From the NCBI GenBank assembly GCA_032027125.1, contig JAVSMQ010000001.1:3241620-3305619 (forward strand): a stretch of DNA of 64,000 bases. Reading direction: 5' to 3'. The translations under genes and the position numbers were made by a program. This DNA comes from Candidatus Kapaibacterium sp. GTDB taxonomy: Bacteria > Bacteroidota > Ignavibacteria > Kapaibacteriales > UBA2268. Below are positions 6,149 through 63,203 of this stretch, piece by piece (the first letter of the stretch is position 1; every line of letters starts with the position of its first letter). The notes beneath the pieces were generated by a model. It ran no database searches and was not told the origin of the DNA. It worked only from the letters and a program-made list of their open reading frames with translations.

Positions 6149-7729
6149 ATGGAAGATGAAGGTACAATTTATTTGAAAGAAAAGGCGATTTCAGAAATTG
6201 AAAATATTCTCAACCAGATAATTGAGAGTGAAATTCCTGAAGAAAAATTATTGGAACAAATGGGAATATTTAATAAAGGTCTTCCATTTGTAAAACTAAA
6301 CAGACCCTGCATTATTGCCGATGGAATAACCAAAATTCAGGAATCTGATTTTGATGCATTATTAAAATTGCACTCAAGAGTTTCAAATGATGGTAGAATT
6401 ATGAAGTTTGTTCCCGCCTCAGGAGCAGCAACACGTATGTTTAAAGATTTGATTACAACCTTCAATAATCGTCAAATAAAGTCTTTAGAAGAGAATTTAA
6501 GTAAAGAAATAGATTACACAATCGAATTTATAAAAAATATCAAAAAATTTGCTTTCTATGAAGTTTTAAATAATAAGTTATCGGAATTAGGCTATGATGC
6601 TGATAACATTATTTCTTCAGGCAATTTCAGAATAATTTTGGATTTATTATTATTTGATAAAGGGTTGAATTATTCATTACTACCAAAGGGTTTAATACCA
6701 TTTCACAGGTATAATGATGAGATTAGAACTCCTTTTTATGAGCATTTAATTGAAGCCTTGGACTATTCAGCGGATAACAATAAGAGAGCAAGAGTTCATT
6801 TCGCTGTGGCAAAAGAGTTTTTCGATGAAATTGAAAATCATTTATATGAAATTACTCAGTATTTGAAAAATAAAGGCAGTTTTGATATTAGTTTAACGAT
6901 ACAAAAGAAATCTACTAATACGATTGCCGTTGATATGAATAACGAGATTATCTTAGATGATGAAAATAATCTGATATTCCGGCCCGGCGGTCATGGTGCT
7001 TTAATTGAAAATCTCAATGAGTTAAATGGTGATTTGGTATATATTAAAAATATTGATAATATTCAGACCGATGATTTGAAAGAGACTACAATTTTTTATA
7101 AAAAGCTTCTCGGTGGTTTTCTTGTTCAAACTCAGGATAAAATATTCGAATTATTAGTTGGTTTACATTCAGGTAATTACTCCTCATCTTTATTTTCGGA
7201 AATTGCTGAGTTTTCAAAGAATATACTTTCCATTAATACCGGCGATGATTATGAGTATAAATCTATAAATGAAAAAGCTGAATTTTGGAAAAAGTGTCTT
7301 GATAAACCACTTAGAGTCTGCGGAATGGTAAGGAATTCCGGGGAGCCGGGCGGCGGTCCATTTTGGGTTGAGGATATCAGCGGAGAATTATCATTGCAGA
7401 TTGTTGAATCAGCTCAAATTGATTTAAATAATGTTGAACAGAAATTGATTTTCAATTCATCTACACATTTTAATCCGGTAGATTTGGTGTGTGGATTGAG
7501 AGATTACAAAGGCAATCCTTATGACCTGAACAAATTTATTGATATTAAAATGAGCTTTATAACAATTAAATCGGTTGGAAGTAAAGAAATCAAAGCTTAT
7601 GAGCTGCCTGGATTATGGAACGGTAGTATGGCTTATTGGAATACAGTATTTATTGAGGTACCTGATACTACTTTTACTCCTGTGAAAACAGTAAATGATT
7701 TGTTGAAGAAAGAGCATCTTCAAACTTGA
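6149..7729 (+). CDS. DUF4301-like / UDPGP-type nucleotidyltransferase-fold protein
   Basis: 526 aa. Motifs FVPASGAATRMFKDL and FRPGGHGALIENLNEL resemble the glycine-rich NTP-binding and G-H-G motifs of the UDP-glucose pyrophosphorylase superfamily. This is a tentative assignment. Confidence 0.4.
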   Translation: MEDEGTIYLKEKAISEIENILNQIIESEIPEEKLLEQMGIFNKGLPFVKLNRPCIIADGITKIQESDFDALLKLHSRVSNDGRIMKFVPASGAATRMFKDLITTFNNRQIKSLEENLSKEIDYTIEFIKNIKKFAFYEVLNNKLSELGYDADNIISSGNFRIILDLLLFDKGLNYSLLPKGLIPFHRYNDEIRTPFYEHLIEALDYSADNNKRARVHFAVAKEFFDEIENHLYEITQYLKNKGSFDISLTIQKKSTNTIAVDMNNEIILDDENNLIFRPGGHGALIENLNELNGDLVYIKNIDNIQTDDLKETTIFYKKLLGGFLVQTQDKIFELLVGLHSGNYSSSLFSEIAEFSKNILSINTGDDYEYKSINEKAEFWKKCLDKPLRVCGMVRNSGEPGGGPFWVEDISGELSLQIVESAQIDLNNVEQKLIFNSSTHFNPVDLVCGLRDYKGNPYDLNKFIDIKMSFITIKSVGSKEIKAYELPGLWNGSMAYWNTVFIEVPDTTFTPVKTVNDLLKKEHLQT

Positions 7730-49924: not shown

Positions 49925-50020
49925 ACACACCCCCTAACCCCCTCTTATTAGAGGGGGAACTAAGATTATATATATCAATGGCTTATTCCCCCTCTATCAA
50001 GAGGGGGTTAGGGGGTGTGT
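49925..50020. repeat. GC-rich nested palindromic element, copy 1 (33-bp inverted arms, each arm an 8-bp-stem hairpin)
   Basis: Left arm ACACACCCCCTAACCCCCTCTTATTAGAGGGGG (49925-49957). Right arm CCCCCTCTATCAAGAGGGGGTTAGGGGGTGTGT (49988-50020). The right arm is the reverse complement of the left except for the 4-nt loop. 30-bp AT-rich spacer. Confidence 0.85.
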
Positions 50021-50196
50021 AGTGAATTCAAGCAAAAACTCACTGAATAAGAACTTTTTCCAATTGACATTATACGCCGACGGGGGATTAAAGGGGTGGA
50101 TTTTTTGATTTCCACAATATTATTATTTTGCAATGAACAATAGAGAATTTTTAGATTTTGTTTTTTTAAGAGATACATGAAGATTACCTGAATTAA

Positions 50197-50230
50197 AACC
50201 CCACCCCCTGCCCCCGCCAGCGGGGGACAA
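50197..50230. repeat. solo/half copy of the GC-rich element (CCCCACCCCC…CCCCCGCcagCGGGGG hairpin)
   Basis: AACCCCACCCCCTGCCCCCGCCAGCGGGGGACAA shares the CCCCACCCC lead and an internal 6-7-bp GC hairpin with the arm of the 62886 copy. Confidence 0.6.
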
Positions 50231-53651: not shown

Positions 53652-53655
53652 TAGA

Positions 53656-53916
53656 CTATTCGTAATGAGTCCACATTTTAAGTATTTTAATTTGCTTAGT
53701 TTCATCGAAAATTTGATATACCATTCTATGTTGGTTATTAATTCTTCTGGAAATGAATCCTTTCAATCTTCCTTTCAAAAATTCATATTTCGGTGGGTAA
53801 ACAAAAGGGTCTTTTGAGATTATTTCAAGCAGATATTCTACATTTTTCTTTAAACCTGCACTTGCAATCTTTTTTGCATCAATTCGGGCTTGATGAGTAT
53901 AATATATTTCCCACAT
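53656..53916 (-). CDS. YoeB/Txe-family toxin
   Basis: 86 aa. …LKGRLKGFISRRINNQHRMVYQIFDE…HYE matches YoeB (…L.G.WSRRI..EHRLVY…, C-terminal H-Y). Confidence 0.75.
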   Translation of the reverse strand: MWEIYYTHQARIDAKKIASAGLKKNVEYLLEIISKDPFVYPPKYEFLKGRLKGFISRRINNQHRMVYQIFDETKQIKILKMWTHYE

Positions 53917-54129
53917 TTACCAATCCAATGATTTTGAGCAATTTTTTAAATCTTCTTGAGAAGCAGTTACAATCGAATCCACGATTCCGGGAATACTCTC
54001 CAAATATTCAGTATCATTTTCCTTATGAGATTTTGCTTTTAGAAAGATTGCATAGTCGAGTAAATCTTTTAGATAATAATATGGCATATTGTTGGTCACA
54101 TTTATTATATCTGACTGCATAGTATTCAT
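53917..54129 (-). CDS. antitoxin partner of YoeB (Phd/YefM-like C-terminus)
   Basis: 70 aa directly upstream, abutting with no gap. C-terminal DTEYLESIPGIVDSIV resembles YefM/Phd ETxYLLxSPxNxxxLxxSI. Confidence 0.5.
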   Translation of the reverse strand: MNTMQSDIINVTNNMPYYYLKDLLDYAIFLKAKSHKENDTEYLESIPGIVDSIVTASQEDLKNCSKSLDW

Positions 54130-54214
54130 TTTTATCGCCTTAATTTAATTTGTAAATATTTTTTAAACGTATTTTCTGTACAGATATTTTGATTTATTAA
54201 TCTTAAAACAACAA

Positions 54215-54263
54215 CTTTTATCATATCATTATCTCCAATAAACGAATGCTCAAAAGTACAAAT
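54215..54263 (-). promoter_or_regulatory. conserved ~45-bp cassette-leader element, copy 1 (upstream of the YefM-like/YoeB operon)
   Basis: Minus-strand reading ATTTGTACTTTTGAGCATTCGTTTATTGGAGATAATGATATGATAAAAG. Shared with the copies at 55177-55225 and 56161-56196. Contains a GGAGA-N5-ATG with a short MIKV… leader ORF. Confidence 0.6.
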
Positions 54264-54485
54264 TAAAACGTTTATAATTCACAGAGTTTTAAAAATAGAG
54301 TTATTTCTTTTGAAAATATTGGAAATAGTAATTAAATCAGTAATTAGTTGCTTTAACTTTTAAAAGTCAAATAGTTTTAAATCCTCTATAAAAATAAAAT
54401 CCTTTTTGTTTAGGGTAAAAAGCTTATAATTATATTTAATTGCAGTAGCAGCTATCAAACAATCAGGAATTTTTAATTTGTGACT

Positions 54486-54749
54486 TTAACAATACTTTTT
54501 CATTAACTTAAGAAATCTATCATTTATGCTTTGATTTATTGAAACAACATTTAGGCTATCAATATCATTACAAATTTTTGTAAGTTCACTTTTATTAAAG
54601 GCACCATAAATCAATTCAGCAGCAGTTATTGAACTTATTGCAATTTTTTCAACTGATATTTGTTGTAAATTCTTTGCAACCGCTAAGTTATCTTTATAGA
54701 ATTCAATTATTACATCTGTATCGCATAAAATCATTTCTATATTTTCCAC
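54486..54749 (-). CDS. PIN-domain protein, short (possibly truncated VapC-like toxin)
   Basis: MILCDTDVIIEF matches the N-terminal PIN motif (first Asp). Only 87 aa, so the distal catalytic Asp residues are probably missing. Confidence 0.45.
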   Translation of the reverse strand: MENIEMILCDTDVIIEFYKDNLAVAKNLQQISVEKIAISSITAAELIYGAFNKSELTKICNDIDSLNVVSINQSINDRFLKLMKKYC

Positions 54750-54988
54750 GCTTCTTTCCTTAATTGCATGGCATCAATATTTCTGTTTTTCCAAATCCCC
54801 TGAGAATTCAGAAAATTATGCTTGGATTTGTTATTTTTTAAATCAATACTTATTTTTTCTTCTGAACCATTTATTTTGGCAATTTCAATACCTAATTTCC
54901 TTGCTAAACTAAGAATCAGTTCCATATCCGATATTGAATTACTTTTTAATAAAACCGCTTCCATGATAAGTCCATTATTTAATTTCAA
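54737..54988 (-). CDS. small protein upstream of the PIN gene (putative VapB-like antitoxin)
   Basis: 83 aa, overlaps the PIN ORF by 13 bp. Partner role inferred from position only. Confidence 0.35.
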   Translation of the reverse strand: MKLNNGLIMEAVLLKSNSISDMELILSLARKLGIEIAKINGSEEKISIDLKNNKSKHNFLNSQGIWKNRNIDAMQLRKEAWKI

Positions 54989-55176
54989 AATACTAATTTA
55001 AATTAATCAACGCTAAGTAATACTTTTTATTATTTTTTAAAATTATTTACCGGTACTTTTTATCAAATACATATTAATAAAGATTGCCTTTTCTGTCTTG
55101 AAAGTAAAGATATTATCATGAGTAACTATATAAACCGAATAGGCAAACTCTGAATCACACTGATTTATATCTTTAA

Positions 55177-55225
55177 CTTTTATCATATCATTATCTCCAA
55201 AGAACAGATGCTCTAAAGTACAAAT
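55177..55225 (-). promoter_or_regulatory. conserved cassette-leader element, copy 2 (upstream of the VapB-like/PIN operon)
   Basis: Minus-strand ATTTGTACTTTAGAGCATCTGTTCTTTGGAGATAATGATATGATAAAAG. Followed by a ~48-codon MIKVKDINQ… leader ORF. Confidence 0.6.
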
Positions 55226-55308
55226 AACTGAATTTTTGGCAAAAACCAGAATAACAAGAATAGATTTGTAATATAACCACTTTGATATATTGTTCTAATA
55301 ATTAAATT

Positions 55309-55650
55309 TCAAAATAATTTGAAATTAATAATTTCAGTATTCAAAATATCATCACCGTTAGTTACAATTTCCAAAAGATCAATTCTACCATTAGTGATAT
55401 TTAAAACAAAACTAAGTTCATTTTCTAAAAGATCTATGGTTAAGCATTTTGTTGAAGTCACTAACACATTAACATCATTAAATTCAAAATATTTAGAATA
55501 TTCAAAATAGACGTATATCCCAACTCCTGTATATTCTCTACTTTTTATATAAATATGAGGGAAGTGAATTTTCAAAAATGGATAATTGCTTTCATTGTCT
55601 TTAATTATTGCTTTTAAAAGTTCAATTTCCAAATTGTTTAAACTATTCAT
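55309..55650 (-). CDS. hypothetical protein downstream of the MNT gene (non-HEPN partner)
   Basis: 113 aa. No Rx4-6H HEPN motif or other recognisable signature. Confidence 0.3.
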   Translation of the reverse strand: MNSLNNLEIELLKAIIKDNESNYPFLKIHFPHIYIKSREYTGVGIYVYFEYSKYFEFNDVNVLVTSTKCLTIDLLENELSFVLNITNGRIDLLEIVTNGDDILNTEIINFKLF

Positions 55651-55713
55651 TTTAAAGTCCTTTTCTACTAAATGAAGTTAAAGTTATTTTGCCATTTATA
55701 ACTCTACTGCTTA

Positions 55714-55986
55714 TCAGGATTCATATATGACTTTACCGTATTTGGTAATTATTCTCATAAAGGGGTCGTTATAATCAAGGGGAGTGATATCAACAGGTAT
55801 TTTGAGCATTTCTTCTAATTTACTACCAAACAGAAATAAGTTTAATCCCGGAATATCGCAGGCTAAATCAATATCATTACAATTTTCGGGATTATCAAGG
55901 GCTGACCCAAACAAAATAATTTTCTTTACATCAAATTCTTTTGCTTTTTCTCTAATATTTCTAATATAATCTTTTTTAAATATCAT
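55714..55986 (-). CDS. minimal nucleotidyltransferase (MNT) family protein
   Basis: 90 aa. ILFGSALDNPENCNDIDL is the G-S…D-x-D pol-beta NTase motif. Confidence 0.7.
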   Translation of the reverse strand: MIFKKDYIRNIREKAKEFDVKKIILFGSALDNPENCNDIDLACDIPGLNLFLFGSKLEEMLKIPVDITPLDYNDPFMRIITKYGKVIYES

Positions 55987-56160
55987 TATTCAAATCTATT
56001 TTATATATTGACTACCTATATATAGACTATGAGTAATTATTTTTATTATTTTCAATCGGTATTTTAAGCACACATATTCTGCGAAATTACATAATGAACA
56101 TTTTACGTTTTGATTCAACTCAAACTCCGAATCTCACTGCGTTCTACTTTAGCCGCTTCC

Positions 56161-56196
56161 CAATCATTATCTCCAAAGACCGGATGCTAAAAATAC
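56161..56196 (-). promoter_or_regulatory. conserved cassette-leader element, copy 3 (upstream of the MNT operon)
   Basis: Minus-strand GTATTTTTAGCATCCGGTCTTTGGAGATAATGATTG. A partial copy sharing the GAGCAT/TAGCAT…TTTGGAGATAATGAT core. Confidence 0.5.
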
Positions 56197-56419
56197 TTAT
56201 TTCTGAATTTATGGTAAAATATAATTTTAAGAATTCATTTGTACTTCTTTCAACAATATTCTGCACAGGATTTAATTCCGTTTTATTTGTTTTGTTATTG
56301 TATGACAATACTCTATCTCCCGCTTTTTATTTTATCAATAGTCAGACTTGTAAATGAATTAAACTTTAAATTGATTGATTATCGTCTAATGAAGAAATTA
56401 TTAATCAATTTAAAAGAAT

Positions 56420-60984: not shown

Positions 60985-62658
60985 TTATCTCTCCTTACTA
61001 TGGTCCATTAATAATTCCGCTCCAAAATCTTCAATCAGCATCCTTTCGACAGGATGTAAATTCGGGTCGGAAATGTTGTTTATAGTCTTTTCTTTAGACG
61101 TTGGTAGGCTGTTTAAGTTGTTTGGAATAATATCGGATTGGTAATTCGGAGTCGTTGTGGGCTTTGATTTAACTTCAATCTCAAATTTTATTATCAAATC
61201 AAATAAATTTTCAACTATTAATGAGAGTCCTTCTAACTTTCTATCTAAATAGTTCCTTTCAAATTCAGACTCACAAGTCAGAATTACTGTTCTGCCCTTA
61301 AGTTCGGGTTTAAAGGCATCAAGTTTAAATCCGGCTTTCAGAATTTCATCAAGTTTTATAAAATCGTTCCATTCAGCCAAAAACTCCTCGGGACTTAGTT
61401 TACGTTTGGGTGTTATATCCGGTATTTCTTTCACTGGCGAGGCCGATGATGTATAGGTTTTGGATTGTTCCTGTAAATTCAAATCGCTATTTGAATTACT
61501 ATTATGATTAATCAACCCCTTTTTTTTTACTGCTCTCAGTTCATTAATCAGCTCAGCAATGTCGGTTGTGGAATCAATGTGAGCAAGCTGTAGAAGAGCA
61601 AGTTCAAAACGGATTCTCGGCTGCGGGCTGTACTTCAGGGATTGTTCAGCCTGAGCAATATGATTCATCATACGGATTAAATCCAACTTGCCGAACTTTT
61701 TTGATTCCTCGAGATATTTTGCTTTCATTTGTGACGATGTTTCTAAAATTTCAGGGTCATTTGTAACTTTCACCGCCGTAAGATTACGTAAATGCTCAAG
61801 TAATCCCTGAAGAGTCTCCTGAAAATCGTAACCTTTGCGGACAACATTACCCACGAGTTCAAAAACCGAAGCTGTATTCTTTTCCAAAACAGCAGAGGTA
61901 ATACGAAAGAAAAATTCTTCATCAATTAAATGCAACGCATCAGCAAGCTCTGAATATACTACATTTTTTCCGCAAAACGAAATAACCTGGTCAAATATAC
62001 TTTGCGAATCCCGCATGGAACCGTCACCTTTTTTGGCAATAGTAACAAGCGATTCTTCATCAATCGTAACCCCTTCTTTTCCAGCTATAAATTCAATTTG
62101 CTTTTTGATGTCTTCGATTTCCATTCTTCGAAAATCGAATCTCTGGCATCGGCTTGTTATTGTTGCAAGTACTTTATGAACTTCAGTTGTAGCAAACACA
62201 AACAGTAAATGCGGGGGCGGTTCCTCCAATGTTTTTAGAAGTGCGTTAAATGCCGCATTCGAGAGCATGTGCACTTCATCAATGATATACATTTTATATT
62301 TACCAGTCGAAGGCGGATATTTTGCATTTTCTCTGAGTTTACGTATATCATCAACGGAATTGTTTGAAGCACCGTCAATTTCAATAATATCCATCGAACG
62401 GCCATCCATCACGGCACGGCAGTTATCACATTCATTACAAGGCTCTGCATCCTGAGGATTCAGACAGTTTATCGAACGTGATAAAATTCTTGCAGTTGTT
62501 GTTTTACCAACTCCGCGGGGACCGCTGAAAAGATAAGCATGATGAATCCGGTTCTTTAATACGGCGTTTTTTAGAGTTTGCGTGATATGTTCCTGACCTA
62601 CCACATCTTTAAAAAATAATGGACGCCACTTTCTGGCTGTAACTATAAAGTCATTCAT
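60985..62658 (-). CDS. dnaX: DNA polymerase III subunit gamma/tau
   Basis: Walker A GPRGVGKTTTARI, Zn module C-x-x-C…C-x-x-C, and SRC arginine-finger region. Confidence 0.9.
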   Translation of the reverse strand: MNDFIVTARKWRPLFFKDVVGQEHITQTLKNAVLKNRIHHAYLFSGPRGVGKTTTARILSRSINCLNPQDAEPCNECDNCRAVMDGRSMDIIEIDGASNNSVDDIRKLRENAKYPPSTGKYKMYIIDEVHMLSNAAFNALLKTLEEPPPHLLFVFATTEVHKVLATITSRCQRFDFRRMEIEDIKKQIEFIAGKEGVTIDEESLVTIAKKGDGSMRDSQSIFDQVISFCGKNVVYSELADALHLIDEEFFFRITSAVLEKNTASVFELVGNVVRKGYDFQETLQGLLEHLRNLTAVKVTNDPEILETSSQMKAKYLEESKKFGKLDLIRMMNHIAQAEQSLKYSPQPRIRFELALLQLAHIDSTTDIAELINELRAVKKKGLINHNSNSNSDLNLQEQSKTYTSSASPVKEIPDITPKRKLSPEEFLAEWNDFIKLDEILKAGFKLDAFKPELKGRTVILTCESEFERNYLDRKLEGLSLIVENLFDLIIKFEIEVKSKPTTTPNYQSDIIPNNLNSLPTSKEKTINNISDPNLHPVERMLIEDFGAELLMDHSKER

Positions 62659-62885
62659 ATTCTGTTAAATGAAATATATTGAATGTAAAATTTAAGTAAC
62701 GAATCAAACGGAATATAATTTATAACTTTCCAAAAATGACCGTGTTTATATTTGATTCCAAAATAATAAATCAAAAAGCAGTATATAGTTCCCGCGTGTA
62801 TCATATTGATGAATAGTATCTGAACGAAAAGTAGCAAATATATAGATTGTAAAGAATTGCAAACATTTTATCCCGCGAAGAATTA

Positions 62886-62973
62886 AGACCCCACCCCAAC
62901 CCTCCCCAAGGGGAGGGAGTAGTCAGAGCAAGGTTTTAAAGCCCTCCCCTTGGGGAGGGTTGGGGTGGGGTCT
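62886..62973. repeat. GC-rich nested palindromic element, copy 2 (perfect 32-bp inverted arms)
   Basis: AGACCCCACCCCAACCCTCCCCAAGGGGAGGG (62886-62917) and its exact reverse complement CCCTCCCCTTGGGGAGGGTTGGGGTGGGGTCT (62942-62973). 24-bp spacer. Each arm contains its own CCCTCCCC/GGGGAGGG hairpin. Confidence 0.9.
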
Positions 62974-63203
62974 GTTAATATTAAGTGATTTTTCAAAATT
63001 TACAACATAATTAACTTCTTTTAAAATATGAAAATTGGGATGTTTTCGTTCAGCCACTAAATATAAGAAAATACAGGAAAATGACAAACGAATCAAAATA
63101 ATTGAAACAAAACATTAGAAAATGGTTACTTTTGTGAATTATAGAAATTAAAAATATAATTTAGAATTTTTGTTTATCCTTAATTATTTAAGTGATTTGA
63201 AAT

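Follow-up and report, generated by a model that had tools for sequence, protein, structure and literature searches.

[quoted passage not shown]

The 88-bp palindrome located between dnaX and ddl in the analysed stretch of Candidatus Kapaibacterium DNA (64,000 nucleotides, hereafter the window), which we call element B, is best explained as a pair of triplex motifs constituting a non-essential, unstable, REP-like structural repeat; we assign to this reading a probability of roughly 0.7. Each arm of the element very probably represents, as judged from the order and symmetry of its segments, a class II G/C-rich intrastrand triplex motif, and the whole element an inverted pair of such motifs, that is, a structure of an already published kind. 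The motifs of the window obey a common sequence rule, covary between copies and occupy intergenic positions, element B is absent from close strains, and motifs of its type recur widely among distant taxa.

Intrastrand triplex repeats have been known for about 25 years. Motifs of this kind were published as the PIT, TM and BoxC elements of bacteria, BoxC (TM/TMECO) being that of E. coli (Holder et al. 2015, PMC4666352), PIT elements being those of Hoyne and Maher (2000/2002, as cited in Holder et al. 2015, PMC4666352). They were reported to be abundant in Proteobacteria and Cyanobacteria, with class II as the commonest type, and to be always intergenic (PMC4666352).

Results

The palindrome between dnaX and ddl

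The original prediction placed a perfect 32-bp inverted repeat, with halves 24 bp apart, in a gap of about 550 bp between dnaX and ddl. A repeat search bore this out: the arms, 62886-62917 and 62942-62973, are complementary at 32 of 32 positions, and the intergenic spacer measures 545 nt and is flanked by two divergent gene starts, that of dnaX at 157 nt and that of ddl at about 140 nt from the palindrome (Table 1). The inner hairpin of each arm is CCCTCCCC-aa/tt-GGGGAGGG. Folding of both strands, which had been proposed as a check, gave -44.3 kcal/mol for DNA (z = -11.5) and -79 kcal/mol for RNA (z = -10.8); none of 200 shuffles folded as well as the real element, either as DNA or as RNA (z about -10 to -11), the computed folding being that of Watson-Crick pairing only. 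Of the two arms, only the left one is followed by the tetranucleotide GTAG.

The window has a G+C content of 33%, and the triplex-motif elements are nearly its only G/C-rich islands. The single other stretch with at least 75% G+C, 7338-7367, lies inside an open reading frame (6149-7729) and contains no palindrome. An assembly artefact was ruled out because a JGI metagenome contig, recorded independently, agrees with the window at every position over 13 kb. Three further identities for element B were dismissed on its sequence: it lacks the R'/R'' cores of an integron attC site, the regular array of a CRISPR locus and the tandem units of a telomere-like repeat. Searches of the window against Rfam at gathering thresholds and with a tRNA scan returned zero matches.

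Table 1. Positions of the elements, their arms, the flanking genes and the strain-variable block in the window
Feature	Position	Strand	Description
dnaX	60985-62658	minus	Pfam domains
Element B	62886-62973		perfect 88-bp palindrome; two inverted arms that fit the triplex motif, with a 24-nt non-palindromic spacer (62918-62941)
B, left arm as putative class II motif	62889-62917	minus	CCCTCCCC-tt-GGGGAGGG-ttg-GGGTGGGG; 8 triplets, 0 mismatches
B, right arm as putative class II motif	62942-62970	plus	CCCTCCCC-tt-GGGGAGGG-ttg-GGGTGGGG; 8 triplets, 0 mismatches
ddl	from 63204	plus	start codon faces the spacer
Element A	49925-50020		35-nt arms, 49925-49959 and 49986-50020; spacer of 26 nt; arms differ in inner loops only
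A, left arm as putative class II motif	49927-49957	minus	CCCCCTCT-aata-AGAGGGGG-tta-GGGGGTGT; 8 triplets, 0 mismatches
A, right arm as putative class II motif	49988-50018	plus	CCCCCTCT-atca-AGAGGGGG-tta-GGGGGTGT; 8 triplets, 0 mismatches
Degraded partner of C	50075-50106	plus	CGCCGACGGGGG-attaaa-GGGGTGG; read from sequence
Single arm C	50196-50228	minus	CCCCCGC-tg-GCGGGGG-ca-GGGGGTG(GGG); 7 triplets, one C-G interruption opposite T
Block absent from strains L225-L227	62816-63063		244 bp and a second copy of the 4-bp AATA; element B central
Left terminal inverted repeat of the block	62814-62830	plus	TAGTATCTGAACGAAAA
Right terminal inverted repeat of the block	63043-63059	minus	TAGTGGCTGAACGAAAA

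Related elements in the hflX-mfd spacer

A second copy sharing the architecture of B had been claimed, and element A has indeed the same build; its arms are 94% complementary, with the sole two mismatches in the inner loops. The accompanying claim that both copies have an identical outer arm did not survive comparison, as the segment, CCCCACCCC in B, is CACCCCC(TAA) in A and varies in step with the inner stem. Element A lies 75 nt past the stop codon of hflX, and hflX and mfd, which flank A and the single arm C, are both encoded on the plus strand. The sequence CCCCNCCCC occurs 3 times in the window, against 0.11 occurrences expected.

In the same spacer as element A, arm C is accompanied at a distance of about 90 nt by a degraded partner. 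The third strand of this partner faces inward, and the two together have the inward third strands known from the E. coli pair. The flank GAATTAA(G/A)ACCCCACCCC of this locus recurs at the left arm of B, with 17 of 18 positions in common.

The mirror rule and three-way covariation

In each arm, the outer segment repeats the inner hairpin's purine strand in mirror order, T standing opposite A or, in C, opposite the C-G interruption, and this third strand tracks the stem from element to element: GGGGAGGG/GGGTGGGG in B, AGAGGGGG/GGGGGTGT in A and GCGGGGG/GGGGGTG in C. It is by this rule, including the T opposite A, that each arm was identified as a candidate class II purine-motif intrastrand triplex motif. 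That the differences between copies preserve structure, as originally predicted, was thus upheld; nested hairpins alone are, however, an incomplete description of what is preserved, because the outer arm mirrors the inner purine stem, so that the covariation of A with B is three-way and includes the third strand. Read from the sequences, such a three-way covariation points to a DNA triplex, more than to a simple hairpin or a G-quadruplex, as the putative structure under constraint. The joint change of stems and third strands in two elements of one genome likewise supports a real constraint towards a predicted triplex.

The class II ITxF definition used here comprises a consecutive pyrimidine stem, purine stem and third strand, with stems of 6-15 nt, loops of 1-6 nt and at most one mismatch. 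The arms of A and B fall within it with 8 triplets and loops of 2-4 and 3 nt, and C with 7 triplets and one mismatch. The definition further asks for a mirror repeat, in which the third strand is antiparallel to the purine strand and places G against G and either T or A against A; the motifs of the window show this arrangement. A strict scan of both strands of the window (128 kb) for perfect 8-nt stems with loops of 1-6 nt gave exactly four matches, namely the four arms of A and B, while no motif was found by the same scan in 200 dinucleotide shuffles; arm C was matched once one mismatch was permitted. All motifs of the window are intergenic, being confined to the hflX-mfd and dnaX-ddl spacers.

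Since its third strand is symmetric, B alone is uninformative as to whether the third strand is a mirror or a direct repeat of the stem. Within the window only element A separates the two rules, and it obeys the mirror rule. Among related loci amounting to about 3 Mb, mirror third strands prevailed over direct ones at asymmetric stems by 44 to 1 for GGGGGAGG, 25 to 0 for AGGGGGAG and 12 to 0 for AGGGAGGG. Of 843 perfect G-rich purine/pyrimidine hairpins, 240 had a perfect third strand 3' of the purine stem and none had one upstream; part of this set was chosen with a fixed third strand, and the asymmetric stem classes are therefore the fairer test.

Signals at the two loci

An intrinsic terminator would be recognised by a hairpin rich in G+C, with a T run behind it, where a transcription unit ends. 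The terminator role suggested for B was not borne out, as B lies between two divergent gene starts and no terminator-like site was found there. The alternative suggestion of a promoter role fared no better, the number of promoter-like matches at B being equal to the shuffle mean. At element A, the search for an intrinsic terminator gave a single weak minus-strand match, not exceeding the number in shuffled sequences. A Y1 transposase domain was detected neither in the 20 small or unassigned open reading frames of the window that were scanned nor in the genes called on contig L001.

Presence and absence between strains

Strain contigs encoding a DnaX protein 99% identical to that of the window have flanking DNA about 96% identical to it; among named homologues, those closest to DnaX and HflX belong to Candidatus Kapabacteria and Kapaibacterium metagenome-assembled genomes. 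The original prediction had set against itself the absence of the element from close relatives at the same locus, without any footprint, and this is what was found: such relatives lack B and have a clean empty site, which argues against a locus-specific function of the element. A clean empty site fits a dispensable, mobile or unstable repeat. A search for short target-site duplications beside the arms, also proposed earlier, was successful in that a short flanking repeat exists (AATA, 4 bp, single at the empty site and present on both sides in the window), but what this repeat encloses is a block of 244 bp rather than the 88-bp palindrome itself.

The block ends in terminal inverted repeats of 17 nt, identical to each other at 15 of 17 positions and with CTGAACGAAAA as their common core, the sequence of the block end being TAGTRKCTGAACGAAAA. 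Inward of these ends, as far as B, the two sides of the block show a likeness of only about 55% when one of them is inverted, and the whole block folds into one long hairpin. Within the 72 kb of the source genome (about 4.5 Mb) that were covered, neither the block nor either of its ends is repeated.

The hflX-mfd spacer is also variable, measuring 504 nt in the window and 268 nt, of unalignable sequence, in more than 20 other contigs of the species. In place of A and C the 268-nt allele carries a different palindrome, which at positions 11340-11445 of contig L229, a representative of the common strain type, reads GTCACTCTGAAGCGGAGCGAAGAGTCC ... GGATGCTTCACTACGTTCAGCATGAC. The core of this palindrome, CTGAACG, is similar to the terminal repeats that close the 244-bp block containing B, and on this sequence likeness the two may be members of one repeat family of the lineage. 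No triplex motif was found in the variant and relative loci (about 65 kb in total). Both loci, that of A and that of B, thus differ among strains that are about 96% identical, an observation on two loci that is descriptive and not statistical. In distant relatives, with DnaX at 73-76% identity, other genes lie upstream of dnaX and the gene order is not kept.

Gene content also differs between strains in the region after mfd (53655-56313 of the window and 14842-17600 of L229): the window encodes there small toxin-antitoxin-like genes (YoeB, PIN, Polbeta/HepT), and the other strain type a RhuM-family gene.

Alleles of the pair in E. coli

Among 5,426 complete genomes of E. coli, 3,536 carry most of the hrpB-mrcB region together with the inverted pair, and most of the others have a shorter allele without it. 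Sequences of individual alleles comprise the full BoxC pair, a collapsed form, and a shorter form in which about 113 bp including the pair are replaced by about 12 bp. In at least one strain a 64-bp deletion between two GGGAGAGGG stems has left a plain hairpin. These alleles present a picture of decay.

Occurrence in other genomes

Arms of the B type are very common and gave at least 120 matches in viral contigs (hosts of 41% to 73% GC among the matches listed), and at least 120 in species-representative genomes when the arm was combined with the TTAA flank. Among the matches listed, Rahnella species have dozens of near-identical copies per genome, arranged in mosaic clusters; the other hosts listed are Prevotella and other Bacteroidales, Flavobacterium, Saprospiraceae, Nostoc, Scytonema, Saccharibacteria, a Clostridia MAG, Halothiobacillus and many Alphaproteobacteria. 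A pattern made from the outer arm alone performed poorly in viral contigs, where its matches were mostly due to chance in GC-rich DNA (true nested elements in about 10 of 109 stretches), and a stricter version including the AA flank had zero matches there. Four IMG/VR matches located at contig ends, with C runs followed by G runs, are likely sequencing or assembly artefacts, distinct from triplex motifs.

The exact 29-mer of B is present in 16 unrelated metagenome contigs (L356-L371) of 35-66% GC, human gut assemblies included, whose flanks have nothing in common except AG after the stem. As this 29-mer recurs without common flanks, the dispersed unit is a single arm of about 31-33 nt. Its recurrence does not demonstrate horizontal spread, for few sequences satisfy the triplex rule with G4-N-G3/4 runs, and identical arms could have arisen by convergence. 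In four of these contigs (L360, L364-L366) incomplete copies of the C-rich part, CCCCACCTAAAGCCCTCCTAAAG, stand before the 29-mer, which looks like a tandem duplication of that part. No second Kapabacteria copy of the exact 29-mer was found in the metagenome-contig collection, which does not contain the window's own JGI contig, Ga0220604_1048211, since this contig has the pattern on both its strands and was nevertheless not returned.

Where motifs were neighbours, they occupied opposite strands in 82 cases and the same strand in 2. In pairs with outward third strands the spacers cluster at 21-28 nt, a range near the 24 nt between the motifs in B and the 30 nt in A, and in pairs with inward third strands they range from 29 to 60 nt.

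The Rahnella family has the form TTAATA-CCCCACCCC-AR-CCCTCCCC-TTCGCA-GGGGAGGG-AGC and is prolific, with near-identical copies and recurring upstream flanks. Often it is paired, about 20 nt away, with a second type, CTCCTCCCCC-tgcgaa-GGGGGAGG-ct-GGGAGGGGG.

Discussion

The mechanism that we propose for element B starts from the order of segments on the G-rich strand, where, from 5' to 3', a pyrimidine stem, a short loop, the complementary purine stem, another short loop and a G-rich third segment may be distinguished. The third segment would lie antiparallel on the purine stem, held by G.GC and T.AT triplets. In B two such motifs are inverted with their third strands outermost, and for this reason the duplex is a perfect palindrome. 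When made single-stranded, at a replication fork or in a transcription bubble, each strand of B could form either one 32-bp hairpin or a local hairpin plus triplex; we infer the triplex folding of single-stranded arms from the sequence rule and from in-vitro results published for related motifs. The likeliest effect would be that replication is hindered and local rearrangement provoked, as reported for E. coli. Interference with replication would then be the cause of the local instability, and the element would lack a cellular function. Whether it should be regarded simply as non-functional, unstable DNA seems to us an evenly balanced matter. B would belong to a family of short, structure-defined REP-like repeats which are quickly gained and lost in intergenic DNA. 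That its arms match perfectly while the remaining inverted parts of the block are so much less alike could alternatively reflect a recent separate insertion or gene conversion.

The closest published counterparts are the E. coli elements. Isolated strands of the E. coli motif formed the triplex, and in-vivo footprinting was without a stable triplex; neither promoter nor terminator activity was found, and no phenotype (PMC4666352). Its loci were reported to be unusually variable between strains, and inverted pairs to be present at 5 of 18 sites in K-12 (PMC4666352). Like PIT, TM and BoxC (PMC4666352), the Kapabacteria motifs are built in the class II order, with the pyrimidine stem first, then the purine stem, and the reverse-Hoogsteen strand last; they are G/C-rich, with stems of 8-9 triplets, loops of 2-6 nt and T.AT and G.GC triplets, and they are strictly intergenic, occurring as single units or inverted pairs at strain-variable loci. 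Unlike TMECO and BoxC, they do not follow the consensus CCCTCNCCC-N3-6-GGGNGAGGG-N3-GGGNGAGGG, their stems being CCCTCCCC/GGGGAGGG, CCCCCTCT/AGAGGGGG and CCCCCGC/GCGGGGG, and their host, in contrast to that of TMECO, is AT-rich (33% GC). The arms of a pair are identical in A and in B, whereas an E. coli pair always has one motif of type A and one of type B. In elements A and B the third strands are directed outward; in the hrpB-mrcB pair of E. coli, which has the same building blocks, they are directed inward and face the spacer.

Similar sequences are known from archaea. The rPQS (repetitive potential G-quadruplex sequences) of Methanomicrobiaceae have a near-identical order of blocks, and for them a hairpin, an antiparallel triplex and G4 were obtained in vitro (Chashchina et al. 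2021, PMC8044849). They resemble the Kapabacteria motifs in being intergenic and multi-copy and in their sequence (G4-6 T G4-5, a short loop, G4 A G4-5, a loop and C3-5 T C3-4; PMC8044849), but their third strand is 5' (class I) and not 3' (class II) as here, their hosts are archaea, and inverted pairs were not described among them. The Rahnella family has a third strand and stems identical to those of element B, and outward pairs with spacers of about 20 nt. It differs in its high number of near-identical copies, in its hosts, which are Enterobacterales of about 55% GC, and in the partner arm, which is of another type (GGGAGGGGG, using A.AT). We know of no published name for this family. Our search of the literature on palindromes and on REPIN/RAYT systems found no published description of the element B sequence, and a Caulobacter paper was a false lead, containing synthetic gene sequences only.

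Among other explanations, insertion of the 244-bp block (62816-63059) as a MITE with the triplex palindrome as its core, by a transposase encoded elsewhere and with a short target duplication, is the most serious, though we consider it rather unlikely. The hallmarks of a MITE are terminal inverted repeats, target-site duplication and many copies. Clean presence and absence, AATA doubled at the filled site (one copy to each side) but single where the block is missing, the 17-nt terminal inverted repeats with their common core and the folding of the entire block as a single long hairpin all speak for it. Against it, a second copy of the block or of its ends is absent from the 72 kb, the terminal repeats and the 4-bp repeat are out of clean register, and a slippage deletion across a large hairpin between AATA repeats gives the same picture. 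Moreover, the exact 29-nt arm in the 16 unrelated contigs makes the arm, and not the block, the dispersed unit. The block may be either a MITE-like insertion in the window or a sequence lost by slippage across the hairpin in the other strains.

A separate problem is how the motifs might multiply. The triplex-motif pairs could in principle be REPIN-like mobile DNA with a single-stranded intermediate, copied by an enzyme which reads the hairpin-plus-third-strand fold and not a tag, an idea that we regard as speculative and improbable. If true, a fold-reading copying enzyme would explain the near-identical units of 29-33 nt across phyla of 35% to 66% GC, and also the almost invariably inverted partners and the clean presence or absence between strains.

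A REPIN in the established sense, that is, a doublet of repetitive extragenic palindromes copied by a hairpin-recognising RAYT (Y1/HUH) transposase, is still harder to accept. The elements resemble REP and REPIN sequences in being short palindromic intergenic units, single or in inverted doublets with short spacers, present in some strains and absent from others, and the dozens of near-identical Rahnella copies per genome in mosaic clusters, among the matches listed, would agree with such an origin. However, no conserved GTAG or CGTC tag was found beside the hairpin in the flanks of the 16 identical arms, which deprives the REPIN reading of its defining features. No RAYT was seen among the 20 small or unassigned open reading frames of the window or the genes called on L001, and the three loci of the window have three different sequences and not one master. 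To our knowledge, the third-strand rule is neither a feature of REP sequences nor of any role in known RAYT recognition.

We give an equally low probability to a functional signal, with which the element would terminate or attenuate transcription, stabilise mRNA as a hairpin or bind a protein within the promoter region common to dnaX and ddl. In favour are the very high stability of the RNA hairpin, the position of A shortly after the hflX stop codon and the T runs that follow related hairpins in GC-rich phage contigs. On the other hand, the position of B between divergent starts without a terminator-like site, promoter-like matches at the shuffle mean, strains of the same species that do without B, the absence of an Rfam match and the published tests of the E. 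coli motif, which had neither promoter nor terminator activity (PMC4666352), make a gene-regulatory signal unlikely. Finally, it is very improbable that the structure selected is a G-quadruplex of the G-rich strand or, on the C-rich strand, an i-motif, for although each B arm has four G runs (GGGG-A-GGG-TT-GGGG-T-GGGG) and the archaeal counterparts give G4 in potassium once the C-tract is removed (PMC8044849), the A arms carry only two runs of at least three G and C three, so that a four-run G4 is not the property shared by the three elements, while the mirror rule is common to A, B and C, and a G4 does not need the complementary C-rich stem.

The locus extends a known kind of repeat in several respects. 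It adds an AT-rich Kapabacteria host of a G/C-rich triplex motif, and because of this host the motif is not a by-product of base composition. It also adds two elements in one genome with joint change of stem and third strand, the pair arrangement with outward third strands and the clean presence or absence at the strain level. The Rahnella family offers a good model for how triplex motifs multiply, and the dnaX-ddl locus provides a well-defined natural allele pair for experiments.
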